IMG/VR virus record: IMGVR_UViG_3300031088_000737
Coordinates: 64,001 to 128,000 of that record
DNA from: a virus
Direction: 5' to 3' (one strand)
DNA length: 64,000 nucleotides
Position 1 is the first letter of the stretch. Every line of letters starts with the position of its first letter. Below are positions 3,179 through 52,512 of this stretch, one piece after another. The notes beneath the pieces were generated by a model. The model did not search any database, was not told where the DNA came from, and saw only the letters and a program-made list of their open reading frames with translations. The position numbers and the translations under genes are program-made.

Positions 3179-6100
3179 ATGTCATTAAATTATACAAATC
3201 AATATATTCAATCAATTTTATCATACATAGATTATATCACGTTTGATGGAACAGATGGTAAAGAAATATTGTTAAATAAAAATTATACGAACTTAACAGA
3301 TAAAACTTCCTTTTTAAATAGGGCTAAAGAATATATAGACAATCCAATAACTTATGCAGAAATGGAATCTAGTTTAGAGTTTTTTACATCACATTTTAAG
3401 ATCATTAATCAGGAAACAGCAGACAATTCTAATGGATTTACGGGAACAACTTACCAGTTGATAAGTCCAATTGAGGGATCTACTTATAATGTTGGAGAAA
3501 TTTTTGTATCTTACACTGGGACAGAGGCAGAGTCTGGTGATTATTTTACGGATTTAAAATTAACTTTTTCTGATTCTATTACTTTTACTAGATCATCACA
3601 AGAACCATTAGCTTTAGATTATTTAAAGAGAACATTAAACAACTCAAATGGAAATGTTGTAAATATTTCAGGACATTCGTTAGGTGGTTATTTAGCAGCA
3701 AGAAGTTATTATTATCTTACAACAGAAGAAATAAAAAAAATAGGTGAGGTGACAACTTTTAATGGAGCTGGTTTTTCTGTTTTAGACGGAGGTTTAGACC
3801 CAGTAAAAAGAGCTTTATATGAAGAAAAAATAAACAATATTTTTTCTTACAGGGGGCTGAATGTTACTACAAGCAATATTGGTGAAATTGATATTTCTAA
3901 TGCTTTGAAAGGTTCTTGGACACTTATTTCAACTTTTCAACATTTAGGTCCAAGAATAGGTGTATTTACTGAAAATCCGGGTGGATGGAAAGGAAATCAT
4001 AGCATGTCTATGTTAGTCAACACTATGGGATTTTATTCTATTTTAAGTAAAATAATTACTGATGTTTTCTATGTTGAAGATGATAACGGTGTCGAATATT
4101 TGGGTGATGATGCTGTTGTTTATTGGGTTAATAAGCTGTTGAGTGGTTCGTTTTATGACACTATTGATTTTGGACAAGCTTATAATACATTAGCTTCCAA
4201 AATAATGGAAATGTTTAATATACCAGAAAATGAGAGTTCAAAAGCAGGTTACCCATCAGCTCAATTTCTTTCTTTATTTGATTATTTTACAGAAAATAAT
4301 AATTTAAAAATTAAAATATTTGAAAATGTTCATTCAGAATCACCTGTTATAACTAATTTTGATAACAATAGTAATCGTGCTTATATGTATGCATTATTAA
4401 ATGACTTACCATTTACTGTTATTGTTCCTGAATCTTATAATACAGGGATATACCAAAAAACAAACCAAGATGGTTTTCAATATACATCAAATATAAAATA
4501 TAATGTAGAATATTATAGTGAGGATTATATAAGTCTAAGATCTATTTACAATAAACTATATACAAAGATACTATCTGACAAATTATCAAGTTCTTTAACT
4601 TATAATTTCACTGATGCTACTATTGTTATAGATGGTTTTGATAAATTTGCATTTATTGATGAAATCAATGTATCTGGAAGCCCAAATAATTACAACGTAA
4701 TTTATGTAAATACAACAAAAGATGAATACATTCCTGATAACGTTCCATTGATCTATTTTAAAGCTGACACTGGTCGTTATCTTGATGTAAAACTCGGTAA
4801 TGCTATTATATATGACACACCGGGTAACGACTCTATTAGGATATATTCAGATAATAATATAATCAACTCCACTTATGGCACAGATATTATTGAAATAGTA
4901 AGTGGAACTGTTGGCAATGTGATTATGCTGAAAGATTTAATAGCCACTGATAAAGAGCAATCCTTGATTGTTAGAAATAACAGTCAATTAGAGCACAGTC
5001 TTACTATCAGTGCTGATAATGTTAACATGGGAGATCTGATTGGAAGAATTAGTGATAACAAGGATTTCACATTAGATTTCGGTAATAAGGTTATAATTCT
5101 TTCAGGTAATACTGATTTAAATGTGGGTGGTTCTCAACATTCTTCGGCAGATATCAATGCTTTATTAAAAAACTTCCCTGAATTGTATTCAGTAGCGGCA
5201 GGACATAATTTTGTTTTTAATGAAAAATTTATTGATGATTACATAAAGATCACAGCCAAAAACTTTTCTGGTCAACTTGGATATGAAAACACACAAACAG
5301 TATCGTCAGAACATGCTGCTTATGTAATTGACAAGTTAACACAATATAGCCAAGACATGAATGATTCTTCATCATTATTCATACAAGAAGAAAAAAATAA
5401 ATTGAATAATAAAGTTACAAGTATCTCTTCATCATTAAATGTGAATGGATTACAAGAAGATATCTTAAATATGGTCATCCCATTAATAAAAAACAAAGTT
5501 GAAGCACAGTCAGTTGCTTTTATTCTTCAAAACAAGTTAGATGATTTTAAATATTTAGATCTTAGTCATCAAGTTAATATGGCAACAGAAGATGGCATGG
5601 CTAATAATAGAGCTGATAACATATATGGAAAAAAAGAAACGAAAAATTATATAGCACACTATACTTCTGAAGGTGATAAATATTGGGTATGGGATGGTAA
5701 ATATTATTATAATAGAGCTATTGATGGGGTTCAAGTATCTGCTTTTTATGATAGTGTTGAACGTGGTGAAGTAATGAATTATTATGTAGAGAATATTGTT
5801 TTGAAAAGCAGTTCAACATTTAGCAGTAATGTTCTTTCTGGATCTAATGGGTCGGATCTTTTAATTGGTGAACATGTTTATGGTCAAACAAACGATTTTG
5901 GAGTCGCAGGTGGAAAGACAGTCACAGAAGCAAACACCGTACAAAATGGAAATGATATTTTAATCGGTAAAGTAGCATCAGCATATTCAGGTAATAATTT
6001 TATATATGGTTCAGAAGGTGCCTATGGAGGATCAGGTAATGATTTGATTATTGGTGGTGGGACGATTATGGCAAATCAAAATTATAAAAATGATACAGAA

Positions 6101-9100
6101 AGCACTAATAATGAAAATGAGATAATAATATTATCATTATCAGATGTATATAGTTCTAATGGTAAAAATAATATTATAGATTTAGGCGAGGCAGGCAGCA
6201 ATATATTTGGAACTAGAAATGATACTTTTATTGGTGGTAGTGGACATTCTACATTTATTGGTGGTTATAATGCTTATTTTGCTTTAAGATATGGTGACAT
6301 CTCTTTTGGTTTGGATGGTGAGAATTTCTTAGAAACATTTAGAATGAAATTTAATATTCTTGATGATTTTTATAATTTACATAAAGTTAATCAATCTTTA
6401 GGTAAAAATATTATTTTAGCTGGCTCAGGTGGTGTGTCTGCTTCTCTTGGATATGGTGATTATATAGAGAATATGAAAGGTGGCGGTGGACAAATTATCG
6501 GATTAGGTGGTAATGATATATTTATTAAAGATCATACAGGTATAATATCAGGTGGTTCATCTAATATTAATATAACAGGAAATAATAATACAGTATATTT
6601 TGGAGTCAAAGATCAATATAGTTTATCTAATGCAAATAATAATATTTTGTATAGTAGAGGTTATCGAGATAATATTAATTTGGGTAATGATTACTATCAA
6701 ATTACTGGTATAGATAATACTCTATTATTAGGTAAATCTTCTTATAATATAAAATTAGATGGCGAAAGCACCCAAGTTAAATTTAAAGAAAATAACAATA
6801 ATAACAACATTGTTATAAATGAATCTAAAACTACATCTATTGATGTTGGCTTTCAAAATATCCTGACTATTGAAAGCCAAAATGAAATTTCTTTAAGATA
6901 TGGAAATCTTACTGAGCTTTTAATAAATACCAGATCACCATTAAGCCTTAATAGTATTATATCTGATCGCATTGTGTTACAAAATTATAATGGTATGAAT
7001 AACAGTGATATTTTTGCTTTATATAGTGTTACTGTTGACAACTTAACTGCTAGTAGTGGTATTATAACAGGCAGTGTAACTGATGTGTCAACAGCTAGTT
7101 TTGAAGGGACATTAGGCGGATTTTCTTTAAATGGTTCTGCTCTAGGAGCAAATGTTGAATTGAAAGGTTTTATTGAAGGTGTGAATACTTTATTTAATAA
7201 CGTCAAATCATTTAATTTTCAGCAAACAATTAGAACATACGAGCAAGCTATTATTGAAATTAAAGATTCCAATATTGATAATTATACATCATCAGGGAGC
7301 ACTAGATTTAGTGGACAAAATACAAATATTGATTCATTAACAGTTAGTGGCCTTAAAAACTCAATTTCTGTTGATGGATCTGTCAATTCAGCTATATTAT
7401 CATCAACAAGTGAACTATTTTTTAATGCAAAATCAATTAAGTCATTACAGGCAAGTTCTAATGGAGTAGTTGTCAAAGGTAATAATGTATTAGGTGCAAT
7501 ATCAGTAGGTATGGGCATTTATGGAAATTCTTTAATGGTCGATAATGCTAGTTTTATTGAAGTTTCAAATAGTGGCTATGGTTCAATGTTTTTATCAGTT
7601 ACAAATAGTGATGTCGTTAATATCATTAGTGGCTATTATAACGGAGCTGTTTTTACAAGTGTTAATACTGTAAATATAAATTTAGATAATGTTAATCCAT
7701 TAAGTTCTTTTAATGGCGATAATATACATTTAACATCTACAAAACCATTATCAATTAGATATTCTAACAATAAGTATTATCTTAATAATGTATCATTCAC
7801 TTTTATTCCTGATTCTGTTACTGTATCTGGTCGTCAATATAATTCAGAACAGTTAGCAGTATTATTTGAAGTCTTAAAGAAATCTAACTTAGTTCAAGCT
7901 ACTGCACTAATAGATTCAACTGGGATTGGTTATGACTCGATAGGTGATACTAATAATCAAGGTGTTCATGTTGATAGTGGTATTTACATAGGTACTGATA
8001 GTGATGATATTGTTTATGCTACTGATAATAAGGCTTATCGAATTAAAGCAGGTAAAGGTGATGATTATATTGATTTTGGAACAAAGCCAAGAGATTCTTA
8101 TACTCACATTATAGAGTACAATCGTGGTGATGGTTTAGATACTATTAACAGTAACAGTGAAAATATAGAAATACGATTGGGCAACATCGCATCAAATGAA
8201 TTGTCATTTAAAATGATTGATGATGTAGTTACCAATAATAAAGTCCTTAAAGTTTTTTTAGGAACTGAACAAATATTTACTATCAATGGCTTTCTAATTT
8301 CTAACATAATATTTAAGGCAAGTGATAAAAATATACTAAAAGCTGATATTATTAGTTTAACATCTACTATTTATGGTACTGATAATGGTGAAGTTATTGA
8401 AGGACTAACAACAGATACTTATATTGTTGCTGGAAAGGGTAATGATACTATTAATTTTATAGGAAATAATAAAAATGTTCTCTATTACAGTCGTGGAGAT
8501 GGTGTTGACATTGTTAATTCAGTTAGTAATTTTGAAATAAGATTTTCTGCTGATATTTTAAAGTCCAGCGTTCGATATAGTAAAGTAAGCGAAAATGTAT
8601 ATGACATCTATTTAGATGCAATTAAAATATTAACACTAACGAATACAAATCAATCTAAGTTTATTTTCTCAAATGGTGATGTGGTTGATGGATATTATAT
8701 TAATTCGTATCTGTCTGAACAGTTAGGTGGTAAACCTTTTTATGAAAATGGAATATATACAGGAAGCGACCTTCCCGATTATTATGATTTGTCAGAAGGT
8801 GGTGAATATCATTTAAAAGGTAATAAAGGTAATGATACTTTTAATTTTGGTGGAAATAATGAGCATAGTATCTTAGACTATACCGAAGGTGATGGTGTTG
8901 ATACTTTGGAAGGATATTCTAAAAATGTCGATATTAATTTGATTAACATGTCATCTGAATTTTTAACTTCTATTTATGAAAATGGTTACTTACACTTATA
9001 TTATAAAGGAGTTAAAATCATGAGAATTGATGATGTTGATAAATCAAATATTAATATTCACATGAGTGATAAGTCTTTTACTCAAACAGAAATTTTCATA

Positions 9101-12900: not shown

Positions 12901-13557
12901 ATGAAAAATGATGTAGATAATTTTTTAAATGTTGATGATTCTCTTTTAAAAGTAATAGAAGATGAAGTATCTCTTATGATTATTGGTACCCATGATGGTT
13001 GTTCTATTTTTAATATTCAACCAATGAATCATTCACGTTTAGAAATCAAATTACAGGAAAACCAAAAACCTTTTTTTTATTATATAGGCGATCCATCTAT
13101 TATATCTCGCTATATATTAACACAATACATGAAAGAAGATTATGATGTATTTTTACAATCTATTTTTCATAAAATTAAAAACTATGGCAAGTTTCTGAAT
13201 ATTGATTTTAATAGCTTCACAAAAATAAACATGAATATTACGTTAGCTAATGATTATCAATCTATTAAAGATATTATATCTGTATGTTTAGTCTATAGAA
13301 TCCTGATCAGAACACATCAATATTATGCCATACATACAGAGCTTACTATTGTATTCGAAGGCGAGTCTCTTTACGATTTTAATTTTACGCAGGGTGATTA
13401 TGCAACACTTAAAATGGTTATTAACTATAACGACTTAAATGGATTTTTTCTTAAATTTGGTGAGGTATATAGAACTGATATTGCAAAAAAATTAGAATTA
13501 CCCGTTTCAACAGACATGAATCAAATGCTCATATTAGCTGAAATGTCGGTAATTTAG
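12901..13557 (+). CDS. Hypothetical protein, paralog family A
   Basis: Paralog of 12198..12836; ends LAEMSVI. Confidence 0.8.
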   Translation: MKNDVDNFLNVDDSLLKVIEDEVSLMIIGTHDGCSIFNIQPMNHSRLEIKLQENQKPFFYYIGDPSIISRYILTQYMKEDYDVFLQSIFHKIKNYGKFLNIDFNSFTKINMNITLANDYQSIKDIISVCLVYRILIRTHQYYAIHTELTIVFEGESLYDFNFTQGDYATLKMVINYNDLNGFFLKFGEVYRTDIAKKLELPVSTDMNQMLILAEMSVI

Positions 13558-13579
13558 TTCAGTTTGTAATTTTAAAGAT

Positions 13580-13605
13580 AAAAAAACCGTAAGTGAATAC
13601 GGTTT
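13580..13605 (-). terminator. Bidirectional intrinsic terminator closing the tRNA array
   Basis: AAACCGTA-AGTGAA-TACGGTTT flanked by A and T runs. Confidence 0.75.
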
Positions 13606-13613
13606 ATTTTATT

Positions 13614-13697
13614 TGGTGCGGAAAGTGGGACTCGAACCCACACGCCTCTCGGCACTGGCTTCTAAGACCAGCGTGTCTACCATTCCACCATTTCCGC
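13614..13697 (-). tRNA. tRNA-Leu(UAG)
   Basis: Full cloverleaf; anticodon stem CTGGT/GCCAG, loop CTTAGAA; long variable arm, A73, encoded CCA. Confidence 0.95.
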
Positions 13698-13704
13698 ATA
13701 GACA

Positions 13705-14049
13705 TTAATATTTCTTTTCAATATAATTTAAATCAACATTTTCAAAGATAAAATCTATATTATTATTTTTGCAACAGGTTATCAAATCTTGATAGTCTTC
13801 AAAATCATTGGCATCATAATCAGGAATACTATCTTCATGTTCATATAAATCAATTAAACTGTAACTCAACTCAGTTTCATCAACACCAGCAATATCGGAC
13901 CATTCTTTTCGAATAGAACGTTTAAAGACATAATCAGTAAAATCTTCTTTATGTGGCTCTGCAACCAGTTCGCCATCAAGGAAGATATTCCAATAACGAT
14001 TGTCATACAAATTAACGATAACAATTTTACCTTTCACTGAGTTTGTCAT
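13705..14049 (-). CDS. Acidic hypothetical protein (114 aa) inserted in the tRNA array
   Basis: The ORF-track call begins inside a tRNA. The likely start is ATG 14049 (MTNSVKGK...) with an AAGGT RBS. Confidence 0.7.
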   Translation of the reverse strand: MTNSVKGKIVIVNLYDNRYWNIFLDGELVAEPHKEDFTDYVFKRSIRKEWSDIAGVDETELSYSLIDLYEHEDSIPDYDANDFEDYQDLITCCKNNNIDFIFENVDLNYIEKKY

Positions 14050-14084
14050 GTTTAAATACCTTTGTAAGAAATAAAACATAAAGT

Positions 14085-14168
14085 TGGTGCCCGAAGACGG
14101 ACTCGAACCGTCACTCCCGAAGGAAGGGGATTTTAAGTCCCCCGCGTCTACCATTTCGCCATTCGGGC
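14085..14168 (-). tRNA. tRNA-Leu(UAA)
   Basis: Stem GGGGA/TCCCC, loop CTTAAAA, long variable arm, CCA. Confidence 0.95.
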
Positions 14169-14177
14169 ATAAAAAAG

Positions 14178-14275
14178 TAATTCAATATTTTAGAATGCAT
14201 TTCAGCAAACGTGTCTACCACTCCACCACCCCGTGCAAACACGAGAAAAGGATTCGAACCTTCGATATTGAATTA
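14178..14275 (-). ncRNA. Circularly permuted tRNA-like RNA (T arm - closed acceptor hairpin - D arm - degenerate anticodon arm, closed by an 11-bp stem)
   Basis: Minus strand: TAATTCAATAT C GAAGG-TTCGAAT-CCTTT TCTCGTG-TTTG-CACGGGG TG GTG-GAGTGGTAGA-CAC G TTTGC-TGAAAT-GCATT CTAAA ATATTGAATTA. Confidence 0.75.
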
Positions 14276-14279
14276 AATC

Positions 14280-14364
14280 TGGTCCCCGGAGCCGGACTCG
14301 AACCGGCACGCCTTTCGGCGGGAGATTTTAAGTCTCCTGTGTCTACCAATTCCACCATCCGGGG
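14280..14364 (-). tRNA. tRNA-Leu(UAA)
   Basis: Acceptor CCCCGGA/TCCGGGG, loop CTTAAAA, long variable arm, CCA. Confidence 0.95.
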
Positions 14365-14382
14365 ATAAACACATGTACAATC

Positions 14383-14468
14383 TGGTACCCGAAGTCGGAC
14401 TCGAACCGACACGCTTTTCAGCGGGAGATTTTGAATCTCCTGTGTACTACCAATTTCACCATTCGGGC
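14383..14468 (-). tRNA. tRNA-Leu(CAA)
   Basis: Stem GGAGA/TCTCC, loop TTCAAAA, CCA. Confidence 0.93.
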
Positions 14469-14479
14469 ATATCTAAATC

Positions 14480-14564
14480 TGGTACGGAAGATGGGACTCG
14501 AACCCACACGCCTCGCGGCACTGGTTTCTGAAACCAGCATGTGCTACCATTTCATCACTTCCGC
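14480..14564 (-). tRNA. tRNA-Leu(CAG)
   Basis: Stem CTGGT/ACCAG, loop TTCAGAA, CCA. Confidence 0.93.
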
Positions 14565-14578
14565 ATTAACTCATAATT

Positions 14579-14664
14579 TGGTACCCGAAGTCGGACTCGA
14601 ACCGACACGCCTTTCAGCGGGAGATTTTAAGTCTCCTGTGTACTACCAATTTCACCATTCTGGC
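14579..14664 (-). tRNA. tRNA-Leu(UAA), one A-G mismatch in the acceptor stem
   Basis: Loop CTTAAAA; near-copy of 14383..14468; acceptor GCCAGAA/TTCGGGT. Confidence 0.88.
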
Positions 14665-14675
14665 ATATCTAAATT

Positions 14676-14759
14676 TGGTGCGTTAGGTGAGACTCGAACT
14701 CACAATCCTTTCGGCACTGGCTTCTTAGACCAGCGTGTATACCATTCCACCACTAACGC
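14676..14759 (-). tRNA. tRNA-Leu(AAG), A34
   Basis: Stem CTGGT/GCCAG, loop CTAAGAA, long variable arm, CCA. Confidence 0.93.
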
Positions 14760-14765
14760 ATGATT

Positions 14766-14915
14766 TGTCGCTTAAAGTAGGAGTCGAACCTACAAGTCAT
14801 GGACTCAATGTCCATCGCGTCTACCGTTCCGCCATATTAGTAAGATACTAATAACAGGATTCGAACCTGTAATGACAGGGCTATCACCCTATGTCTACCA
14901 TTCCATCATTTAAGC
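14766..14915 (-). ncRNA. Double tRNA-like RNA with swapped acceptor stems and no anticodon loops
   Basis: Minus strand: GCTTAAA TG ATG-GAATGGTAGA-CAT A GGGT-GATA-GCCC TGTCATT ACAGG-TTCGAAT-CCTGT TATTAGTA-TCT-TACTAATA TG GCG-GAACGGTAGA-CGC G ATGGAC-ATTGA-GTCCAT GACTT GTAGG-TTCGACT-CCTAC TTTAAGC G ACA. Confidence 0.8.
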
Positions 14916-14919
14916 AATC

Positions 14920-15003
14920 TGGTGCGGAAGGTGGGACTCGAACCCACACGTCTCTCGACACTGGCTTCTAAGGCCAGCACGTCTACCATTTCATCACTTC
15001 CGC
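14920..15003 (-). tRNA. tRNA-Leu(UAG)
   Basis: Stem CTGGC/GCCAG, loop CTTAGAA, CCA. Confidence 0.95.
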
Positions 15004-15025
15004 GTGATATTTCTTTACATCAATT

Positions 15026-15109
15026 TGGTGCCCCGAGGGAGACTCGAACTCCCACTCCTTTCGGAAACGGATTTTGAATCCGCCGCGTCTACCATTCCGC
15101 CATCGGGGC
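15026..15109 (-). tRNA. tRNA-Leu(CAA)
   Basis: Stem GCGGA/TCCGT, loop TTCAAAA, CCA. Confidence 0.95.
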
Positions 15110-15141
15110 TTATGTTGTAGCTACATATCTTACTATAAATC

Positions 15142-15225
15142 TGGTGCGATTGGAGAGACTTGAACTCTCAATCCTTGCGGCATTGGCTTCTTAGACCAAC
15201 GTGTATACCATTCCACCACAATCGC
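15142..15225 (-). tRNA. tRNA-Leu(AAG), A34
   Basis: Stem TTGGT/GCCAA, loop CTAAGAA, CCA. Confidence 0.93.
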
Positions 15226-15232
15226 ATATCTT

Positions 15233-15316
15233 AATGAGTAAAGGGACTCGAACCCTTACGCCTTTATGGGGCATGTCTAAGCGAAGACATTATGGCTACC
15301 ATTACATCATACTCAT
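15233..15316 (-). ncRNA. tRNA-like RNA or pseudo-tRNA with Leu-type body, non-canonical anticodon loop and no CCA
   Basis: Acceptor ATGAGTA/TACTCAT; T arm AAGGG-TTCGAGT-CCCTT; anticodon arm ATGTCT-TCGCTT-AGACAT (6-nt loop); variable arm GCC...GGC. Confidence 0.7.
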
Positions 15317-15415
15317 CAGGGGTTTGACTTTGATAATAGTGAGTTACAAGCTAATAATTACTATGTTTCAAAGTTTCCAGTGGGAACCGGAGCAACCCAA
15401 TTTTAAATCTTTATT

Positions 15416-15500
15416 TGGTGCGGAAGGTGAGACTTGAACTCACAATCATTATAGAAACTGTGTTTGAGACAGTCGCGTTTACCAGTTTCGCCACATCCGC
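15416..15500 (-). tRNA. tRNA-Leu(CAA)
   Basis: Stem ACTGT/ACAGT, loop CTCAAAC; one T-T mismatch in the acceptor; weakly paired variable arm; CCA. Confidence 0.85.
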
Positions 15501-15552
15501 ATATTTATTTCTTTAAGAGTGTTTGTTTGTTTCCTCACTCTTCATGTTTACT

Positions 15553-15581
15553 ATCTTACCAACTCTTTTCTTCTTTGTCAA
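15553..15581 (-). promoter_or_regulatory. sigma70 promoter of the tRNA-Leu array
   Basis: TTGACA-17 nt-TAAGAT. An IHF-consensus match (AATCAATGATTTA, 15619-15631) lies just upstream but may be chance in AT-rich DNA. Confidence 0.8.
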
Positions 15582-15671
15582 CAACTATTTTAAATTATTT
15601 TAAAATATTTTCCTTTTAAATCAATGATTTACGTTGTTTATAGTTGTAGTTAACCCTAGACATTCGCCCAT

Positions 15672-15776
15672 AAAAAAAGACCCTTTTGGGGTCCAGATGC
15701 GAAATGAGGCGAGTTTTTATATTCGAGGTCATCTGCATCTGGACAATCTAATTGTCCAAAATGCAGACAAATAGAT
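15672..15776 (-). promoter_or_regulatory. Transcription attenuator (alternative hairpins, antiterminator and terminator) downstream of the Leu leader
   Basis: Terminator GACCC-CAAAA-GGGTC-T7 (15672-15693). Antiterminator GTCCAGATGC (15735-15744) pairs perfectly with GCATCTGGAC (15691-15700). Protector hairpin 15732-15767 and competing hairpin 15746-15776. Confidence 0.85.
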
Positions 15777-15777
15777 G

Positions 15778-15840
15778 CTAGCCCAAGCTAAGTAATAGTG
15801 AGCTTAAGAGTAGCAGTGATAATCGAATAGTTGTGAACAT
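15778..15840 (-). CDS. Leucine-rich attenuator leader peptide MFTTIRLSLLLLSSLLLSLG
   Basis: GAGGA RBS, 20 codons, 9 Leu (TTA CTG CTA CTC TTA CTA TTA CTT TTG); LeuL-like architecture. Confidence 0.85.
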   Translation of the reverse strand: MFTTIRLSLLLLSSLLLSLG

Positions 15841-15864
15841 AATTTCGTCCTCGTTAATTCTTAT

Positions 15865-15893
15865 ATTTTATCAAAGGTTCGTTTCAAAGTCAA
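15865..15893 (-). promoter_or_regulatory. sigma70 promoter of the Leu leader
   Basis: TTGACT-17 nt-TAAAAT, back to back with a divergent TTGACT at 15909 (10-bp inverted repeat TCAAAGTCAA/TTGACTTTGA). Confidence 0.8.
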
Positions 15894-15967
15894 ATGATTT
15901 CGTGCTCATTGACTTTGATTTCAATCACTATAAGATAATAGAAATGTTAATATAATGGAGATGGTGC

Positions 15968-16681
15968 ATGACCAAAGAGACAGATATACTTAAGCTCTAC
16001 GAAAAAATTCTAAAACACTCACCTTATTCAAAAGCTAATGATGTTGTTCGTATAGAAGCCAATACTTATCCATCTCAATCAGTGGAGCAATACCTTATCA
16101 AATCAACCAGTAGTGATGAAACTCTGTTAAATGCCATCATGATACCCACTGGCATACACACTAGTCAGTATTTGTTAAATTTAAATTTTGAAGGCGTTAC
16201 TAATGTTAACAATATTAATAAATGGTTAGGTAAAATTCATTTTAATCATGTGGTTGATATTATTAATAGCTATGCTCTGACTGGATTATCTGTTGGACTT
16301 ATTAAGGATATCAGTTATCCAGCAAAAATATCGTTGTCGTGGTTTTATCAACACCAAGAGGTTTATCAATCCTTTGGAGCCTACTATCATTCTATTTATC
16401 CTGATTATAACAAACGTGTCGCTAAGGTTTCTTTTATTGATTTGACCACTGGTTTGGAAACACGTCCTTTAAAATTGACGGCTAATCTAGAACTCTTAAT
16501 TGTCGATGAAGTCTTAACACCGACCGTTGTGTTATCTGTTCCTTTTGTTAAGACCAAGAATAGAAAAGAATTGCGTATCAATCTCAATGAACCTTTGGAT
16601 CTTGCTGTTTACATATCATTGTTTAAAAATGAATTTCAGTCCTTGCTTGATGCCAAAGTAAAGAAAACAAAAAAGAAATAA
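15968..16681 (+). CDS. Hypothetical protein
   Basis: 237-aa ORF, GGAG RBS, basic tail KVKKTKKK. Confidence 0.75.
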   Translation: MTKETDILKLYEKILKHSPYSKANDVVRIEANTYPSQSVEQYLIKSTSSDETLLNAIMIPTGIHTSQYLLNLNFEGVTNVNNINKWLGKIHFNHVVDIINSYALTGLSVGLIKDISYPAKISLSWFYQHQEVYQSFGAYYHSIYPDYNKRVAKVSFIDLTTGLETRPLKLTANLELLIVDEVLTPTVVLSVPFVKTKNRKELRINLNEPLDLAVYISLFKNEFQSLLDAKVKKTKKK

Positions 16682-21977: not shown

Positions 21978-22718
21978 TTGAAAAACCGAATACGATACGC
22001 TATGCCTCTCACCATTGATGAATTAGAGCATATCATTTTCAAAGTTGGTAAAACTGCAGTATTTGATGACAATGTAATAAAGTCATCACTCTTAGAGCAA
22101 GCTGGCTTTATTTCTATTCTTGATTTAGAAGCAAGCGAATATCTTTTTAAATCCTTTGAACATTACATCTTATTAATCAACATAGAACGTTTGATTAACA
22201 CAAATAAATTCTACATATCATCAAAATCTTACATATTAAACAATGAACGAAATATCAGCATCATTAAAAACTTAAATCGTGATAATTATCTTCATATTTT
22301 ATCAACTGTTGGTGATTCAGAAGAAACGTTGATTGGTAATAAATTTTACATTACGAATAACACAAAAGCCTATAAAGAAGTTTTTGATTTTCCTGAGCAT
22401 CTTGATATGGGAGTAACATATAGCGTATTTAAATATCAAGATTTCAAATATCGTATTGAACAAATTTGGATGGATGGTATGTTTGATGTTCAATATATTT
22501 CAAATGAAGATAATAACAATCTTATTGTAACGGACTTAACATTCTCTGAATACGGAACGTTGATAGCCTATTCTGTTGAAAACAAGAAAGGGTCAGTAAA
22601 ATCTAGTAACCTAAATTCATTGATTGATACCAGCCATGTTAACATAGACAACTATCATTCATTTTTCCAAAAAATCAATAAAGAAACGTTAACGGTTATT
22701 GAAATGCTTATTGAATAA
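21978..22718 (+). CDS. Hypothetical protein, paralog family B
   Basis: C-terminus IDNYHSFF...VIEMLIE shared with 23534-25880. Confidence 0.75.
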   Translation: MKNRIRYAMPLTIDELEHIIFKVGKTAVFDDNVIKSSLLEQAGFISILDLEASEYLFKSFEHYILLINIERLINTNKFYISSKSYILNNERNISIIKNLNRDNYLHILSTVGDSEETLIGNKFYITNNTKAYKEVFDFPEHLDMGVTYSVFKYQDFKYRIEQIWMDGMFDVQYISNEDNNNLIVTDLTFSEYGTLIAYSVENKKGSVKSSNLNSLIDTSHVNIDNYHSFFQKINKETLTVIEMLIE

Positions 22719-22775
22719 TATTGTTGAGTAATATTATAATTATGCTATAATAGAAATAAATAATATGAGAACATT

Positions 22776-23453
22776 ATGCAAAATATATTTAAACAAAGCA
22801 TTAGCAATCAGCTTTATAATGATATCTTTACAACTTATCAATATATAAATTATACTTCATTTTATAAAGATGAAAACGAACGCAATATTAATAAAAAAGA
22901 AAACCAAAAAAAAATAGCAATGATTGCTGCTGGTAGTTTAGGATTGCTCACGGTTGGTATGATGGCACTTAATCATTTTGATATTTATCAAATAAATCCT
23001 GAAAACATTAAATTTAGTGTGGTTGCAGCTATATCTGCTATTTCTATTAATGCAACAATTTCAAATACTTTAGATAGATTAAAAAACAATCGCAACAAAA
23101 GATATTTTGACGAAGCGTTGAATTATGACCAATTTGAAAAAAGATTGGTCGCTGATTTAAAATCTTATGGCATTCCAGTCCAATATAAAGAAGTCTCAAC
23201 ATTAAAAGAACATAATGATTTGAAAGACATTTGGAAAAACTCAGATAAAAAAGATTTTATTGATGATGTTCGTAGCAAAACTACCGAGTATGTTAAAAAG
23301 TTAATGGATACTTATGTTGAACCTGCTTTAGTAGAATCATCAGCAAAGTTAGATCAACAATACATAAAACGTATGCTAGATGGTTTCAGTGAAGAACCTG
23401 TTGCAGAGATAGCTTTACCATCAAAAACAAAACCTAAGAAAAATACACCATAA
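22776..23453 (+). CDS. Membrane-anchored hypothetical protein, family G
   Basis: Two hydrophobic segments; N-terminus IFKQSIS matches 28152..28676 (LFKQSIS). Confidence 0.75.
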   Translation: MQNIFKQSISNQLYNDIFTTYQYINYTSFYKDENERNINKKENQKKIAMIAAGSLGLLTVGMMALNHFDIYQINPENIKFSVVAAISAISINATISNTLDRLKNNRNKRYFDEALNYDQFEKRLVADLKSYGIPVQYKEVSTLKEHNDLKDIWKNSDKKDFIDDVRSKTTEYVKKLMDTYVEPALVESSAKLDQQYIKRMLDGFSEEPVAEIALPSKTKPKKNTP

Positions 23454-23533
23454 CAAAAAAGGCTTCGGCCTTTTTTTGTTGCTATTATTCTCAATAATGT
23501 GCTATAATACTGGCATTCTAATGAGGTCTGATT

Positions 23534-24292
23534 ATGCTGGATATTAAAAACATAGAACCTGACATTTTATTCATTACTAAAAGTATACCTACCGATATCT
23601 TTATGGCGGCTTTGACAACCATTGGTTCGACCGTATATTTTTACGAAGATGAATCTATTATTAAAGATATTTTGCTTTTTCATGGATTCAAAGATATCAG
23701 CTCAACATTACGAACTATCCACTATAAGGTTACTAATGGAAAGATACTTCTCATTCATATAGAAGATTTTTATGTCCGAGATAAATACTGGATTCAATTA
23801 ACGGATAAAAATATTAATTATATTGAAAATAATTTAAAAGAATACGATGACCCCTTGGACTCATTAGATTGTATTAATGAGGGTATTTATCAATTGTATG
23901 ATACAACTTTAGAAATTCCATTTAATGAAATGTTTGATGTTGCCCATATCATTGATGAAAAAATTAAAATTAATAAAATTGAACTTTCATTTAAATACGA
24001 AAAAGATAAAATGATGTCAATTAGAATTTTTCATCGAAAAGGCAGTTATATCCATATAAGTTATATAAATTACGTTGATAAATTTGATTATCTATATTCG
24101 GACTTTATTGAATTTGTTGCTGGCCGCATGAATGTCGCACGATTAATCAATAAAACAAAAAAAATAAATTTAGATATTACATCTGATTCTGATATTGTTG
24201 ATGTAGCCACTCTTACCTTGGATAACTTTCATTTATTCTGGAAGAATTTTACACCCGAACAAAAACTGCTTGTTGAAATGTCTGCAATATAA
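23534..24292 (+). CDS. Hypothetical protein, paralog family B
   Basis: EKY/DKYW, FKY..D and TLDNFHLFW motifs; ends VEMSAI. Confidence 0.8.
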   Translation: MLDIKNIEPDILFITKSIPTDIFMAALTTIGSTVYFYEDESIIKDILLFHGFKDISSTLRTIHYKVTNGKILLIHIEDFYVRDKYWIQLTDKNINYIENNLKEYDDPLDSLDCINEGIYQLYDTTLEIPFNEMFDVAHIIDEKIKINKIELSFKYEKDKMMSIRIFHRKGSYIHISYINYVDKFDYLYSDFIEFVAGRMNVARLINKTKKINLDITSDSDIVDVATLTLDNFHLFWKNFTPEQKLLVEMSAI

Positions 24293-24302
24293 GGACTAGA
24301 TA

Positions 24303-25082
24303 ATGATTGACTTAAAAACCACTGAGATGAAGCTTATCACTGTAGATATTAATACCTTTGATGCTAACGAATTTGTTAGTCATGTGTATGAACCAGAAGT
24401 GTGTGTTGCTTTTATTAACTACAGTTATGAAATGCTAGACAATGTTTTTAGAAATGCCGGATTTTCAAAAATCAAAACGGCTGAAACTCCACATTACTTT
24501 CAAGTTTTAGGAGCGTATATTTTCGTTGTTTACTTAGAGGCGAGTGTCGATAACTTTGTAATGAGAGAAAAATATTACCTTTATAATTCTGAACAAAACC
24601 TGAAAGCTGTCGAAACCTTCAGTAATAAACGGGCCAGTAATGGTTCATTTAAAGATTTTCATAGCGATAGTGAAGTCTTTAAGCATAAACTCTTTCCAGA
24701 GTCTTTAGATATGCCATTTTACGTCAACTATCTTGTTCGCTCAGCTTATGAAACGCCGAAACTACTTAGATTAGATTTGGGTTTTAAATATGGTCAAGAT
24801 AAGTTTATGTTTGTATCTATTTTTGATAGAGCAGATAAACGTATACAAATTCAGTATGATACCTATACCCCTAACTGTCAGTATATGTATGCCGAATTTA
24901 TTCAGTTTATTAATGATGAATTAGTCGATTTAACTATCTTTAATCCAAAAAATCAGAAAAAGATGTCGATGATGAATCTGCGGGATGAATTTGATGCTCA
25001 CATTACACTCGACAACTATCATCTTTTCTGGGAACGTTACACGGCTGAACAACTCACATTGATTGAAATGTTAATGGTCTAG
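24303..25082 (+). CDS. Hypothetical protein, paralog family B
   Basis: GFKYGQD, TLDNYHLFWER; ends IEMLMV. Confidence 0.8.
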   Translation: MIDLKTTEMKLITVDINTFDANEFVSHVYEPEVCVAFINYSYEMLDNVFRNAGFSKIKTAETPHYFQVLGAYIFVVYLEASVDNFVMREKYYLYNSEQNLKAVETFSNKRASNGSFKDFHSDSEVFKHKLFPESLDMPFYVNYLVRSAYETPKLLRLDLGFKYGQDKFMFVSIFDRADKRIQIQYDTYTPNCQYMYAEFIQFINDELVDLTIFNPKNQKKMSMMNLRDEFDAHITLDNYHLFWERYTAEQLTLIEMLMV

Positions 25083-25115
25083 TCGCTTACATATTTAAAA
25101 TGAGGATACTTAATT

Positions 25116-25880
25116 ATGATGGATTTGGAAAATACCGATATACACTTATTGTTTGTTGATATAGAAACAGAAAAAGAGACGCTTTGTCGTTATTTAAGCA
25201 CACCAGCAACTACTGTTTGGTTTGAAAGTCATCGTTCAGAATTATTTTATGATTTGCTTATAAAATCAGGTTTTCAACAATTTAAAAATTTAACAAAATT
25301 GTACTTTCAAGTTTTTGGTGAATTGATCTTGATTATTAATGTTTATGAGACAAATGTTAAAGAAAAATATTGGATTAAAAACACTGAAAGTAATCTGGAA
25401 TTCGTTCAGAAAGCAGATTTAAATTATGAAAGCTCCTTTCAAAGTTATTACAGTGATGCTGCACAACAATATAATCTGTATCCAGAAGCGGTCGATGTTC
25501 CGTTTTTTGAACACTTCGAAATTAGACAAACAGGTAATTTATTTTTAAATAAACCGAGCTTAATTCGTGTAGATATTGGTTTTAAATATGCTCCCGATCA
25601 ATTTATTATTGCTTCTCTTTTTAAAAATGATAAAAATACTGTTCATATTTGTTATGATGACTATAATGATAATTCTAAAAAAACATATCCTGACTTTATA
25701 GAATTTGAAGGTAACCAATTAAGTGTTGTGCAGATGTTAAATAGAAAAACTAGTAAAAAGATATCACTGCTAGAAGAAAACATGTTTGATAGCACACAGA
25801 TAACCTTATCGAACTTTCATTTGTTTTGGGAGCGAATGACAGCCGAAGAGAAAACACTATTAGATATTTTGTTAATTTAA
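25116..25880 (+). CDS. Hypothetical protein, paralog family B
   Basis: GFKYAPD, TLSNFHLFWER; ends LDILLI. Confidence 0.8.
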   Translation: MMDLENTDIHLLFVDIETEKETLCRYLSTPATTVWFESHRSELFYDLLIKSGFQQFKNLTKLYFQVFGELILIINVYETNVKEKYWIKNTESNLEFVQKADLNYESSFQSYYSDAAQQYNLYPEAVDVPFFEHFEIRQTGNLFLNKPSLIRVDIGFKYAPDQFIIASLFKNDKNTVHICYDDYNDNSKKTYPDFIEFEGNQLSVVQMLNRKTSKKISLLEENMFDSTQITLSNFHLFWERMTAEEKTLLDILLI

Positions 25881-31907: not shown

Positions 31908-34259
31908 ATGAGAACAGTTTACTTTTTATCAGCGATGCCGGGAACTGGTAAATCAACTTTTATTAGAGAACATGGTTTAGATGCTCATAGCTTGTCTTTG
32001 GATGCTATTCGTCATATTTATGCAGGAGCTGCCACAGATATGGATGGTCGCCTTATATTATCTAACAATCGAGAGGATTTAGTTTTTGGTAAATTTATGG
32101 AAGCCTTTGAACTGAGACTTCAAATGGGTGGTGTTCTCTTTATTGATAACCTTAATCAAGACCAAAAAGCAATTGACTCTTACATGGATCTTTTGAAAAA
32201 ATTTGATTATGATTACCGTGTGGTTCAATTCCCATTGCAGCCTATTGAGTTTTATTATGCTCGTAACGATCAACGTGAACCTTATAAAAGATTGCCAAAA
32301 GATGCGATTGATAGAAATTATGTGTTATTTCAGAATGCGTCATTTGATGATATGACAAAAATTATTACACCTGATGATGCGATTAAATTTGTTAAAGCTT
32401 CACCAGAAGACTTAATGATTGATTTAAGTGGATATAATAAGATTCATTACATTGGTGATCTTCAAGGTTCCTTTTATCCATTAAAAAAGTATTTTGAACA
32501 AGAAGGTGGTTTCAAAAAGAATGAATTCTATATCTTTGTAGGTGATTATATTGATCGTGGAATTGAAAATGATAAGTGTCTACACTTTTTAAGAAAGTAT
32601 ATGGGTTATGATAACATTGTATTTCTTATGGGTAACCATGAGAAGCATTTGTATAACTACAGTAATGATATCTATACACCACCTGATGAATTCATGAAGA
32701 AGACCTTGCCACAGCTTGAAAAAGCAGGTTTTACAAAAGAAGACATGAAAGAATTGTATCGTAAAATGCAATTGTTTAGCTTTATTCAATACAATGGACA
32801 AAAAATCATGACCACACATGCTGGTTTGACGGCTATCCCTGAGTTTCCACGTCTCTTGTCTGATGATGAATACATGCGTGGTTATGGTCCATACAGCTAT
32901 GATGTTGATGGTAAGTTTAATGAACAAAACAAAGACAATGAATGGTATCAAGTTCATGGTCATAGAAACCAACATAAACTAGATTTCAACAGTTATCCTA
33001 AAAGTTTTGCATTAGAAGCTGATGTTGAATATGGTGGTAGTTTGCCTGTATTGAGAGTCAGCCGTGAAGGTTTCAATGGTGTCTACATTACCAATAAAGT
33101 GTTTAATAAAGAAGAAGTCCTTAAAATGGAAAAAGCATCTGGCATGTTTGGTGTTGGTGAACCAGAAGGTGCTCTTGCTCATTTCTTAAACCGTAAAGTA
33201 GATGGTCACAAAAGTGGTGTTGAATTACTTCAAGAGTTGAGAAACAATAAGTTGTTGGTAGAAACTGTTTCTATTTCAAAGCCACATTTATCTACATTTA
33301 ATTTTAGCCATGATGTTGCTGACGCTAATATCCAAAAATCATCTGTTAAAATTCGTGGGCTTGTAGTGAATAACAAGACAGGTGATATCGTCACTCGTGG
33401 GTTTGATAAGTTTTATGCATTGAATGAAAAAGATGTTGCTGCTAATACATTAGAAGCTATTAAGGCAAAAGAAACGGGGGCTTTAAATGTATTTGAACAG
33501 GAAGATGGTCGTTTAGCCATGATTGGATATGACGTTGAAAATACTTCATTAGTGTTTACATCTAAACACGGAATTGATACTGCAGAAGCGGAGTCCTTTA
33601 AACAATTGATTTTGAGTAATCTTAAATCAAGTGAGCTTGAATTTATGAAAGTGTTTGCAAACAAACACAATGTTAACTATATTTTTGAAGTCATTGATCC
33701 AAAGAATGATTCAAACATCATTAAACCAGAGAATAGTTCTATTGTATTATTAGCAGTCGTAAAACGTGATGTTGTGCTATCACAATTAACATACGAAAAC
33801 TTAGAAGCCTTTGCTGGTCATTTTGAATCGCTTGAAGCTAAGAAAAAATTTGTAAGCTTTAACAACTTTGAAGGTTTTGAAAAATTCTGTAATGCCCTCA
33901 GTAATGAATCAGCATTCAAAACAAAAAGGCAAATGGAAGGATTTGTAGTAGAAGGAGCTGGTATGTTTATGGTTAAATTGCCTTACTATCAATTCTGGAA
34001 GTCAATGAGTGATTGCGTAAACCAAATCAATGTGGATGCTGTTAAAGGTGTTAAAACTGATCTCCCTGCTTTAGTAGAAGCATTAAATATCAAGTCAGAT
34101 GACAAGCCTAATGCGATTGAATTTTTGGAAAGTGTTAGAAGAATGTCGAAAGAAGAACGTGAATTAGATCTTGTGTCATTGAGAGAAAAGTTTTTGAGTT
34201 CAAGACCTGATCTTTCAGTTGTAGTAAAACCAAGAAAAAATAGGAACTCACCAAGTTAA
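31908..34259 (+). CDS. Pnkp-like RNA end-healing protein: P-loop polynucleotide kinase + metallophosphoesterase + Rnl-like ligase domain (degenerate)
   Basis: MPGTGKST Walker A; IGDLQG, GDYIDRG, GNHE, HAG, HGH; ligase-like RGFDKF, EQEDG, FEVID, EGFVV. Confidence 0.88.
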   Translation: MRTVYFLSAMPGTGKSTFIREHGLDAHSLSLDAIRHIYAGAATDMDGRLILSNNREDLVFGKFMEAFELRLQMGGVLFIDNLNQDQKAIDSYMDLLKKFDYDYRVVQFPLQPIEFYYARNDQREPYKRLPKDAIDRNYVLFQNASFDDMTKIITPDDAIKFVKASPEDLMIDLSGYNKIHYIGDLQGSFYPLKKYFEQEGGFKKNEFYIFVGDYIDRGIENDKCLHFLRKYMGYDNIVFLMGNHEKHLYNYSNDIYTPPDEFMKKTLPQLEKAGFTKEDMKELYRKMQLFSFIQYNGQKIMTTHAGLTAIPEFPRLLSDDEYMRGYGPYSYDVDGKFNEQNKDNEWYQVHGHRNQHKLDFNSYPKSFALEADVEYGGSLPVLRVSREGFNGVYITNKVFNKEEVLKMEKASGMFGVGEPEGALAHFLNRKVDGHKSGVELLQELRNNKLLVETVSISKPHLSTFNFSHDVADANIQKSSVKIRGLVVNNKTGDIVTRGFDKFYALNEKDVAANTLEAIKAKETGALNVFEQEDGRLAMIGYDVENTSLVFTSKHGIDTAEAESFKQLILSNLKSSELEFMKVFANKHNVNYIFEVIDPKNDSNIIKPENSSIVLLAVVKRDVVLSQLTYENLEAFAGHFESLEAKKKFVSFNNFEGFEKFCNALSNESAFKTKRQMEGFVVEGAGMFMVKLPYYQFWKSMSDCVNQINVDAVKGVKTDLPALVEALNIKSDDKPNAIEFLESVRRMSKEERELDLVSLREKFLSSRPDLSVVVKPRKNRNSPS

Positions 34260-39612: not shown

Positions 39613-40401
39613 TTAAATAGTTCCCATTTCAATAATTTTCATGTAATCTATTTTTTCTTCAGTTGTTAGTTGTTTTAAATCAGCCATTGTCATTTTAAAA
39701 TTATTTTTTAGTAAGACATCCATATGTTCTTTTACTTTTGATTCATAATCATTTTTAAAGCCTAACAATTCTACTTCCTGATTACATTTGTTATCTTCAT
39801 GAATGTTTAAATATAGGTAATACCGTTTTTTAGCAGATACAGGGTAGGAAACTGTCAAAACAGGCTGTAGTTTGTTATTCTTAACTATGAATCTTAGTTC
39901 TATATTAATTGTACAAGCATAAACCATTTTTTTGTAATCTGGATCAAATTCAACTAAGGCATTTGAAAGCGTTACGACACCAGCCGTTTTGAATGAGCTG
40001 TTTTTTTCAATCAATTTACTTTTAAATTGTCCTTCTATCGAGCAGTCTTTTATTTCAATTTTTTTCACGAATCCATATCGTTCACCAATGATATTGAAAT
40101 CATTAAACATATTATTTAGATAAGTGTAGTCATAGTTTTTATTTCCAAATAACTGATCAATAGTTTCGTTTTCTACATATCTAAATTTCATCGAACAGTG
40201 ATAGTCATACGACATATTGGGAATCAATCGTTGAGGTTTAGCAAACACACAGGCTACGGTACTGGTATTGTATTTAACTGTTTCATCAATGCCTACAACT
40301 TCATAAATGGAATACTTGTCTTTTGGACACAAATACTTTTCAAAGGATGTATTATCAAACATCTCATGATAGGCTGCTAATACTACCTCTGCATTGATCA
40401 T
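39613..40401 (-). CDS. Hypothetical protein, paralog family D
   Basis: NY.Y, G..F, L.P.L.V..P motifs; ends TEEKIDYMKIIEMGTI. Confidence 0.8.
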   Translation of the reverse strand: MINAEVVLAAYHEMFDNTSFEKYLCPKDKYSIYEVVGIDETVKYNTSTVACVFAKPQRLIPNMSYDYHCSMKFRYVENETIDQLFGNKNYDYTYLNNMFNDFNIIGERYGFVKKIEIKDCSIEGQFKSKLIEKNSSFKTAGVVTLSNALVEFDPDYKKMVYACTINIELRFIVKNNKLQPVLTVSYPVSAKKRYYLYLNIHEDNKCNQEVELLGFKNDYESKVKEHMDVLLKNNFKMTMADLKQLTTEEKIDYMKIIEMGTI

Positions 40402-40412
40402 AGACACTCCGA

Positions 40413-41258
40413 TTAAATCATGGACATTTCAGCAACTTTCAAATAATTCAATTTATCTTCAAAGGTTAATGTTGCTAAATATTTATTTTTTAGTTTTAAT
40501 TCTTTTCTTAAAATCATATCCACTCTTTCTTTTAATACGATATCTAACTTAGACATCGCTTTTTCGAGTTGTCGTTCATTAAACGCTTGTCCATCTGGAT
40601 GAATATCAACAGTAATGAACATTTTGTCACTGATAGAAATGGGGAATGTAATCTCTGCTAATGGATGAATAACACCGTTAGTGACAGCAAACTTATAGAC
40701 TATTGTAATTCTTCGGCTTCTTAATTTACCATTTCTGGTGTTGTTTTTAGTTTTGAAGAAGTCTGCAAAATTAACTTCTGATATCTTAGTCTCAGTGGGA
40801 ATAAGTTTTGTAGAAATTCCTTTAAATTGATAAGCTTTTTTAAAGTAATGATGAAGAGCGGGATCTTTAATGGTTTCCAATGATTCAAATAAAGCATGTT
40901 GTTGCCCCATTGCAAAGCAATCATTGATAACTTTATTGACAATTTCATAATTATAGTTCACTTGACTAAATAGAGAACTTACAAATTTTTTGTTGAGATT
41001 AGAAAACTGTAAATAAGTATAAAACTGATAATCTTCTTTTTCTTGTGGATACCCAGTGTTATAACTAAAAGCCATATATATTTCTTCATTTTCTTCATCA
41101 ATTTCTTTTTGCTTAACAGCTTTATTTCTTGATTTAATAACCCCAACGACACCCGTACTTGTACTAGAGTTTGCGTCGTAAAACGAAGGCTTATCAAAAG
41201 CGGTTCCCTCAAAAAGTTTTAAATAGGCGTCTAAGCAGGTTATTTGACTTTCATTCAT
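40413..41258 (-). CDS. Hypothetical protein, paralog family D
   Basis: IHPLAEITFP, DIHPD; ends AEMSMI. Confidence 0.8.
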   Translation of the reverse strand: MNESQITCLDAYLKLFEGTAFDKPSFYDANSSTSTGVVGVIKSRNKAVKQKEIDEENEEIYMAFSYNTGYPQEKEDYQFYTYLQFSNLNKKFVSSLFSQVNYNYEIVNKVINDCFAMGQQHALFESLETIKDPALHHYFKKAYQFKGISTKLIPTETKISEVNFADFFKTKNNTRNGKLRSRRITIVYKFAVTNGVIHPLAEITFPISISDKMFITVDIHPDGQAFNERQLEKAMSKLDIVLKERVDMILRKELKLKNKYLATLTFEDKLNYLKVAEMSMI

Positions 41259-41288
41259 GTAAGGCTCCATAATTTAACAGTAACGGTA

Positions 41289-42107: not shown

Positions 42108-42143
42108 TAATATCTCCAGTGGTATTTTATTCTTTGATTACAT

Positions 42144-42947: not shown

Positions 42948-43001
42948 TTTACAAACCTCTTTCGTGAGGTCTATTATATCAAAAAAAAGAACTTTAATCA
43001 A

Positions 43002-43790: not shown

Positions 43791-43813
43791 TTTGACTCCA
43801 TATTCTCATTTAT

Positions 43814-44623: not shown

Positions 44624-44634
44624 TTAATAGTACC

Positions 44635-52326: not shown

Positions 52327-52360
52327 AAAAAAAGGCACTTGGTTTTGACCGAGTGCCTTT
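52327..52360 (-). terminator. Attenuator terminator upstream of ileS
   Basis: AAAGGCACTCGGTC-AAA-ACCAAGTGCCTTT followed by a T-run, between the leader ORF and the ileS RBS. Confidence 0.85.
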
Positions 52361-52382
52361 GAATTAACAACAACTTATCCTG

Positions 52383-52445
52383 TTAGCTCATTGGCAACTT
52401 AGGGATAATAATAATGCTGTTTACGAATGTGTTTAAGGTTTTCAT
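52383..52445 (-). CDS. Ile-rich attenuator leader peptide MKTLNTFVNSIIIIPKLPMS
   Basis: 20 codons with tandem ATT ATT ATT ATC; GAGA RBS; promoter TTGACT-17-TATGAT at 52476-52504. Confidence 0.82.
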   Translation of the reverse strand: MKTLNTFVNSIIIIPKLPMS

Positions 52446-52512
52446 GTTTTATTTAATCTCTTTTAATTAATTTCAATCATATAACAATTGACCGATTAAG
52501 TCAATCTCTATT

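Follow-up and report, generated by a model that had tools for sequence, protein, structure and literature searches.

The 64,000-nucleotide stretch analysed here (the window, i.e. positions 64,001 to 128,000 of the IMG/VR virus record IMGVR_UViG_3300031088_000737) carries an array of 11 tRNA-Leu genes on its minus strand, and in front of this array a cassette that encodes a Leu-rich leader peptide followed by mutually exclusive RNA hairpins. This element is very probably a ribosome-mediated (leader-peptide) transcription attenuator that regulates tRNA genes, and tRNA output is probably raised when the matching codons are read slowly. No fewer than seven further types of array in the lineage have the same design, and it also recurs at ileS and aspS of this genome. 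Judged by comparison of sequences, the link between leader and array is as secure as such an analysis allows.

Anatomy of the Leu cassette

All parts of the cassette lie on the minus strand. The upstream promoter P1 (15865..15893; TTGACT-17-TAAAAT with an extended -10 TG) is among the three top-scoring promoter matches of the region in a promoter scan, and its hexamers are unchanged in an alignment of eight orthologous sequences. The Shine-Dalgarno sequence GAGGA (15848..15852), which is unvarying in the same alignment, is located 7 nt 5' of the ATG of the leader open reading frame (ORF). This ORF (15778..15840) encodes the peptide MFTTIRLSLLLLSSLLLSLG* in 20 codons, nine of which specify Leu, and the six kinds of Leu codons are all represented (TTA x3, CTA x2, CTG, CTC, CTT and TTG).

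The leader ORF is followed by a set of competing RNA helices. The 5' arm of hairpin A (15746..15776; -9.2 kcal/mol, z = -4.5 in folding against shuffled sequences) begins 2 nt past the leader stop codon, and its formation excludes hairpin B. The latter (15732..15767; -19.0 kcal/mol, z = -6.3) serves as an anti-antiterminator by sequestering the 5' strand of the antiterminator. The antiterminator itself, GTCCAGATGC:GCATCTGGAC, pairs 15744-15729 with 15707-15691 (-22.4 kcal/mol, z = -6.4) and overlaps the GGAC of the terminator 5' arm. Finally, a terminator scan detected the intrinsic terminator of the attenuator at 15672..15694 (GGACCC-CAAAA-GGGTCT plus U7, -8.2 kcal/mol), which is unchanged among the relatives. 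According to the computed energies and the overlapping strands the Leu leader is thermodynamically bistable, as both the terminator and the upstream helix exclude the antiterminator. The complete 200-nt leader folds with z = -5.2 relative to shuffles. Downstream of the attenuator, and thus between it and the tRNA genes, is a second promoter, P2 (15553..15581; TTGACA-17-TAAGAT). Together with an AT-rich upstream tract it forms a common P2 module (15553..15640), which was present at all arrays found.

An earlier note on this DNA, which had been made from the sequence alone, had placed P1, the leader with its nine Leu codons of six kinds, hairpins A and B, the terminator and P2 at positions where we recovered every one of them. 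It had also described mutually exclusive hairpins in the leader region, which as a whole folds far better than shuffles. The antiterminator that it described exists as well, yet it had been given a length of 10 bp, and the computed helix comprises 16 bp. In the region 13000-16500, an Rfam search at E <= 1 retrieved only tRNAs, with neither a T-box nor any leader family, including the classical Leu leader RF00512. Likewise, tRNAs alone, without leader or T-box family, were found when the whole window was searched at the gathering threshold. A megablast comparison with GenBank phages gave matches at the tRNA level only.

Conservation of the Leu leader

Homologues of the protein adjoining the Leu leader are 98, 89, 86, 81, 72 and about 52-54% identical, and the loci fetched for them carry tRNA-Leu arrays directly behind the same leader. 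Neither leuS nor leuA was found at these homologous loci. The earlier note had raised the caveat that the attenuator could be a relic of a lost leuS or leu gene, and had proposed to check relatives for synteny of leader and tRNA array versus a leuS gene at this position. Since the leader directly precedes tRNA-Leu arrays and the synteny is kept without leuS or leuA, this caveat can be rejected.

An alignment of the eight orthologous sequences, which represent six distinct versions, revealed a marked gradient of constraint. Variable columns make up 3% of the leader ORF (2/63) and 9% of the attenuator; the corresponding values of the flanks are 25% (P1 spacer and 5' untranslated region), 23% (terminator to P2) and 37% (P2 to first tRNA). 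Within the attenuator, eight of the ten variable columns are unpaired in all four helices, and the remaining two correspond to an internal bulge of B and a mismatch of A. Substitutions thus avoid the stems (Fisher p = 0.0017), and those in the antiterminator are confined to its interior loop. Across the aligned versions there is not a single synonymous change at the Leu codons, which points to selection on codon identity or RNA structure, beyond the peptide alone. The leader is almost unchanged even where the neighbouring protein is only 52-54% identical.

A compensatory exchange was observed in another leader of the lineage, that of a Glu/Arg array. When comparing L033 8030-8290 with L029 830-1090, a G-C pair is replaced by U-A in a double change that keeps the long-range helix. 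The pairing partner of the beginning of the Glu/Arg leader ORF (AUGAACAUGUUAG) is located downstream of helix 1:2, and in one genome an ATG-to-ATT change is accompanied by C-to-A in this partner. This suggests an involvement of the start region in the switch.

Leaders match the arrays that they precede

The window is taken from an IMG/VR record of 181 kb, which carries the label 'provirus'. When this record was searched with the Leu leader region, a second copy was found that spans the terminator tail to P2 only, with 82% identity to the module of the Leu array. Behind this second P2 copy lies an array with the tRNAs Ala-TGC, Ala-GGC, Arg-TCT, Arg-CCT and CAT. Upstream of it are a different consensus promoter of its own, a Shine-Dalgarno sequence, a leader ORF and a 12-bp terminator, and the leader reads MNIQLTIRARAIS (ATA AGA GCC AGA GCG ATA). 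P2 is thus common to the Leu and the Ala/Arg array, whereas the leaders differ and correspond in each case to the tRNAs of the array that follows.

The conserved P2 core (TTGACA-N23-27-TAAACATGAAGAGT) was then used as a pattern to scan metagenomes. Among the 15 loci retrieved, ten are P2-headed tRNA arrays in related genomes and five appear chance-like. The arrays of these related metagenomic genomes are each headed by their own promoter, Shine-Dalgarno sequence, short ORF, terminator and P2. The leaders read MLVFQLVSSSSSSHSSHMEG at the His/Ser array, MQNFKLVGCGGCGCGCGRMNTSA at the Cys/Gly array, MKPTFKFSSSYYYSYSR at the Ser/Tyr array, MNTLYTVVIVMDIMDIIDIQS at the Ile/Asp/Val/Met array, MNMYMINNQQPQPQPQQWGWQPIA at the Pro/Trp/Gln array and MNMLVKSLREREERLS at the Glu/Arg-ACG array. 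The cassettes measure about 200 nt and consist of sigma70-type promoters, Shine-Dalgarno sites and intrinsic terminators, with terminator stems of 10-14 bp in leaders other than Leu. Pattern scans of IMG/VR for the P2 module detected nothing related; a looser pattern returned 57 random loci without arrays.

To quantify the correspondence, we counted, for eight leaders and eight arrays, how many residues of a leader are amino acids for which an array supplies tRNAs. The true assignment scores 75 and is the sole best among the 40,320 permutations. The correspondence extends to the level of codons and anticodons: for 74 of the 75 matched codons the own array contains a suitable anticodon, and in the opposite direction 31 of the 35 array anticodons find a cognate codon in their leader. 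Individual isoacceptors are matched as well, as AGA in the Ala/Arg leader corresponds to Arg-TCT, and CGA/CGT in the Glu/Arg leader to Arg-ACG. In the Leu cassette, the six kinds of Leu codons parallel the five anticodons of the array.

Leaders in front of synthetase genes

In the same genome, two genes for aminoacyl-tRNA synthetases are preceded by cassettes of this type. The ileS element (52327..52504, minus strand) is composed of a promoter, the leader MKTLNTFVNSIIIIPKLPMS* (ORF 52445-52383) with four Ile codons in a row, and a 12-bp terminator, and precedes ileS (49758-52283, minus strand; isoleucyl-tRNA synthetase, TIGR00392). The aspS element (G000:C1 6628-6790, in L005, minus strand) has a promoter, the leader MTIRFIADNNDNFAQLSVGLSVA with the residues D-N-N-D-N, and a terminator; the AspRS gene (5308-6576) lies downstream of this Asp/Asn leader. 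Both cassettes lack P2. Relatives of IleRS in IMG/VR are distant (30-35%), and none of them has an Ile leader. A 'TIR' tripeptide just ahead of the regulatory codons is common to three leaders.

Ribosome position and choice of fold

Equilibrium folding of full-length leaders is uninformative, since the terminator always wins, in all leaders alike. Only transcripts cut just before the 3' arm of the terminator discriminate between the states. In these transcripts a ribosome footprint of 28 nt (-15 to +12 around the A site) was forced to be single-stranded, codon by codon. With the ribosome on Leu10-Leu17 of the Leu leader, the minimum free energy fold consists of A and the antiterminator, the probability (P) of the latter being 0.55-0.99. 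A ribosome on Leu19, Gly20 or the stop codon covers A; B then forms and leaves the terminator free (P = 0.00). This position dependence is stable for downstream footprint edges from +10 to +14, with P values of 0.00-0.02 at the end of the ORF. The logic put forward in the earlier note, namely that a ribosome at the stop codon masks A and permits B and the terminator, and that a ribosome stalled on Leu codons permits A and the antiterminator, is therefore reproduced by footprint folding in this thermodynamic model.

For a comparison of all ten leaders we computed how strongly, in terms of free energy, the 5' arm of the terminator is sequestered. In seven of them (His/Ser, Cys/Gly, Ser/Tyr, Ile/Asp/Val/Met, Ala/Arg, ileS and aspS), the stabilisation of the antiterminator is greatest (7-13 kcal/mol) when the A site is on matched codons, and declines to 0-4 kcal/mol at the end of the ORF (last codons or stop). 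In the His/Ser and aspS leaders it climbs back to 6-7 kcal/mol at the stop codon itself. The peak of the ileS leader is located on and just before the Ile run, and the aspS leader shows 8-12 kcal/mol on the Asp/Asn codons and 0-1 kcal/mol afterwards.

From these calculations we infer the direction of the regulation as follows. P1 would transcribe the 20-codon ORF holding every Leu codon, and the position of the leading ribosome would pick the RNA fold. Slow decoding of any Leu codon would stall the ribosome within codons 10-17, whereupon hairpin A could form and B would be blocked. The 16-bp antiterminator would then pair part of the terminator 5' arm, and the polymerase would pass P2 into the 11 tRNA-Leu genes. 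Upon fast decoding, the ribosome would arrive at the last codons or the stop and mask A, B and then the terminator would form, and the array would be fed by P2 only. As the sensor reads codons that are served by the isoacceptors of the array, the circuit would exert negative feedback on decoding capacity. The presumed physiological signal is the supply of charged tRNA-Leu, and it is on this supply, not on leucine synthesis, that the circuit would act. Cleavage of tRNA-Leu by a defence nuclease, which the earlier note had named as another possible trigger, would be a speculative one.

Alternative explanations

Several observations weigh against such an attenuator. Because P2 lies below the terminator at every array, attenuation would modulate the P1-derived fraction only. 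The Leu terminator has a short stem of 6 bp that scores no better than shuffles (z = -0.9), and since the stems of the Leu leader are invariant, they offer no covariation. In the folding models, the position dependence of the Pro/Trp/Gln leader is only weakly Leu-like and that of the Glu/Arg leader is ambiguous. Unlike in trp superattenuation, the untranslated Leu leader favours read-through in our simple model. Moreover, hairpin B is made before the antiterminator 3' strand and is far more stable than A, so that the kinetic path to A and the antiterminator is not assured.

A regulation of opposite sign, where efficient translation of the leader would cause read-through and stalling would cause termination, would amount to a feed-forward coupling of tRNA output to growth. 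This scenario could draw on the fact that in several leaders the matched codons are 15-35 nt upstream of the first strong stem, which a stalled ribosome would therefore not cover. In addition, a ribosome at the stop codon of the Glu/Arg leader partly melts helix 1:2, and with a +16 footprint the antiterminator returns when the ribosome is at the stop codon of the Leu ORF (P = 0.94). However, all footprints from +10 to +14 gave 0.00-0.02 at the end of the Leu ORF versus 0.55-0.99 on the Leu codons, and the seven leaders that peak on matched codons include those of ileS and aspS, where the classical logic is to be expected. We thus regard the opposite sign as unlikely.

A slightly lower probability still is assigned to the possibility that P1, leader and terminator constitute a separate short unit, for example a codon-sensing small RNA or peptide or an insulator, or that read-through from them interferes with transcription from P2, the arrays being in either case essentially expressed from P2. 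The strong conserved P2, the AT-rich tract between terminator and tRNAs at every array, and the conservation of the stretch from T-run to P2 as a module would all agree with this. On the other hand, the codon-level match to the downstream anticodons and the co-linear layout on the same strand recur at eight array types, which argues for a link in cis to the array. Furthermore, a unit standing by itself would not need an antiterminator, and ileS and aspS carry the same cassette without P2. Chance, in the form of a fortuitous hydrophobic mini-ORF, or a remnant of a leu-operon or leuS attenuator beside a tRNA array can be considered as effectively refuted. It is true that Leu-rich short ORFs are common in AT-rich DNA and that the leader families of Rfam give no match. 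Yet the pairing of eight leaders with eight arrays is the unique optimum of all permutations, the six Leu codons are retained across lineages without synonymous change, and leuS or leuA was not found at any homologous locus.

Relation to known attenuators

Leader-peptide attenuators are well known from enterobacteria, with leuL, the multivalent ilvL of ilvGMEDA, ivbL, thrL, hisL, pheL and trpL. The cassettes described here resemble attenuators of the leuL, ilvL and thrL type in that a promoter, a codon-rich short ORF and mutually exclusive helices are combined to sense the position of a ribosome, and the multi-amino-acid leaders ilvL and thrL have their counterparts in the Ile/Asp/Val/Met and Pro/Trp/Gln leaders. 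Whereas the classical systems control biosynthetic enzymes, the genes in question here encode tRNAs. Classical leaders contain a run of one codon, but the leaders of the arrays sample every codon or isoacceptor of the array. Further differences are the second promoter below the terminator and the lack of any sequence or Rfam similarity.

The pheM leader of pheST provides a precedent for leader-peptide attenuation of the translation apparatus, to which the ileS and aspS leaders are direct analogues; its target is a synthetase, whereas here tRNA genes are concerned. A leader upstream of the E. coli tRNA-Phe genes was considered as a possible precedent and rejected, as a check on MG1655 showed no leader ORF at pheV or pheU. 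T-boxes likewise attenuate transcription in cis, respond to the state of a single specific tRNA and regulate genes with a role in translation. They bind the uncharged tRNA directly and without translation, in contrast to the translated ORF that would act as sensor here.

The control of bacterial tRNA genes is generally regarded as global, with growth rate, stringent response and the strength of the promoters as its determinants. To our knowledge, tRNA genes have not been placed under leader-peptide attenuation, and we know of no mechanism that tunes individual tRNA species to demand. Full-text literature searches for leader-peptide control of tRNA genes returned no account of it. If the proposed attenuation is correct, it would represent the first isoacceptor-specific feedback on tRNA supply, and attenuation would be extended beyond amino-acid metabolism to the machinery of decoding itself. 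The sorting of the arrays by amino acid would thereby be explained as well, and the cassettes would offer a portable design for codon-specific reporters of decoding speed in synthetic biology.

Contents of the tRNA-Leu array

According to ARAGORN, the array (13614..15500, minus strand) contains 11 tRNA-Leu genes with the anticodons TAG (x2), TAA (x3), CAA (x3), CAG and AAG (x2). Two aberrant tRNA-like genes and one ORF of 113 aa (13705..14046, minus strand), which has no family match and is absent from some relatives, are also located inside it. This agrees with the gene content given in the earlier note, i.e. 11 tRNA-Leu genes, tRNA-like RNAs and a single small ORF. An intrinsic terminator at 13584..13605 (minus strand; terminator scan) closes the array. 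Homologous tRNA-Leu arrays are found in L009, L017, L019, L032 and L035.

At the 5' end of the P2 transcript, directly before the first tRNA, we noticed by eye a stem-loop of the form AAGAGTG...CACTCTT (15516..15542, minus strand). P2 transcripts begin with the conserved CATGAAGAGT (15516-15545 on the minus strand of the window; equivalents in L002 and L024-L033), which pairs with a 3' arm that varies among arrays yet remains complementary. This stem-loop may be a processing or stabilising element.

Three loci within the array deviate from ordinary tRNA genes. A conserved type-II tRNA-like gene (15232-15317, minus strand) has an anticodon loop of 8 nt and no encoded CCA. Compared with its homologues (L015:54-139, L017:4031-4114, L019:4040-4123 and L032:1346-1429), the body is nearly invariant, and the middle of the loop is unique to each lineage (TTCGCTTA, TTAGCTTA, TAAGCGTA and TTCACATA). 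This gene might encode a four-base decoder or a decoy. At 14767-14915 (minus strand), two short tRNA-like units lie side by side (Rfam 38 and 28 bits), one of which was called Gln-TTG with an odd loop by ARAGORN. At 14169-14280 (minus strand), a fragment with T-arm and 3' acceptor is followed by one with 5' acceptor, D-arm and anticodon arm. This is either a rearranged, permuted-looking remnant of a tRNA-Leu gene or a recombination scar between units of the array.

The replicon and its tRNA genes

Homologues of the protein adjoining the Leu leader reside on contigs of up to 1.84-1.92 Mb, and contigs of 1.84-1.92 Mb were obtained in four independent assemblies. The 'provirus' record thus belongs to a replicon of about 1.85-1.92 Mb with a GC content of 30%. 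Amino-acid-themed tRNA arrays, at least nine in number, are dispersed over the replicon (contigs behind L009, L017, L019 and L024-L033), and on one contig of 678 kb several P2-headed arrays are more than 390 kb apart. It is conceivable, and in our view slightly favoured, that this replicon of about 1.9 Mb keeps nearly its whole tRNA complement in themed arrays, each behind a leader sampling exactly the codons of its isoacceptors, with synthetases controlled likewise. Such an arrangement would be a homeostat that works through translation across the whole genome, measuring and adjusting the supply of every decoder separately, and if it exists, it would add a regulatory layer of tRNA genes that has not previously been described.

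With respect to the nature of the replicon, the 181-kb record gave no match to Terminase_6N, Phage_capsid or structural PHROG families, and no 16S gene was detected in it. It encodes GAPDH, a PPAT/CoaE fusion, AsnB, an AI-2E transporter and an MFS-acyltransferase, and about half of its larger ORFs have no Pfam family. A genome-contig scan with the neighbouring Fpg protein gave distant homologues only (29-39% identity). Language-model neighbours of ClpA and IleRS provided weak leads to Pseudomonadota and Campylobacterota, IleRS being nearest to Campylobacterota. We tend to favour a cellular genome of an unusual kind, or else a very large element, over an ordinary prophage.

Two further features of the surroundings deserve mention. 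The window encodes a Pnkp-like fusion of kinase, phosphoesterase and T4-type RNA ligase (31908-34259, plus strand; 783 aa), and the 181-kb record also encodes an RtcB ligase (L005 8791-10227, plus strand); the two provide a set of enzymes for RNA/tRNA repair in the vicinity of the tRNA arrays. In addition, the window contains seven ORFs in tandem at 39613-45381 (minus strand) and five at 21978-25880 (plus strand), all of similar size (about 250-285 aa), which have the appearance of paralogous families.

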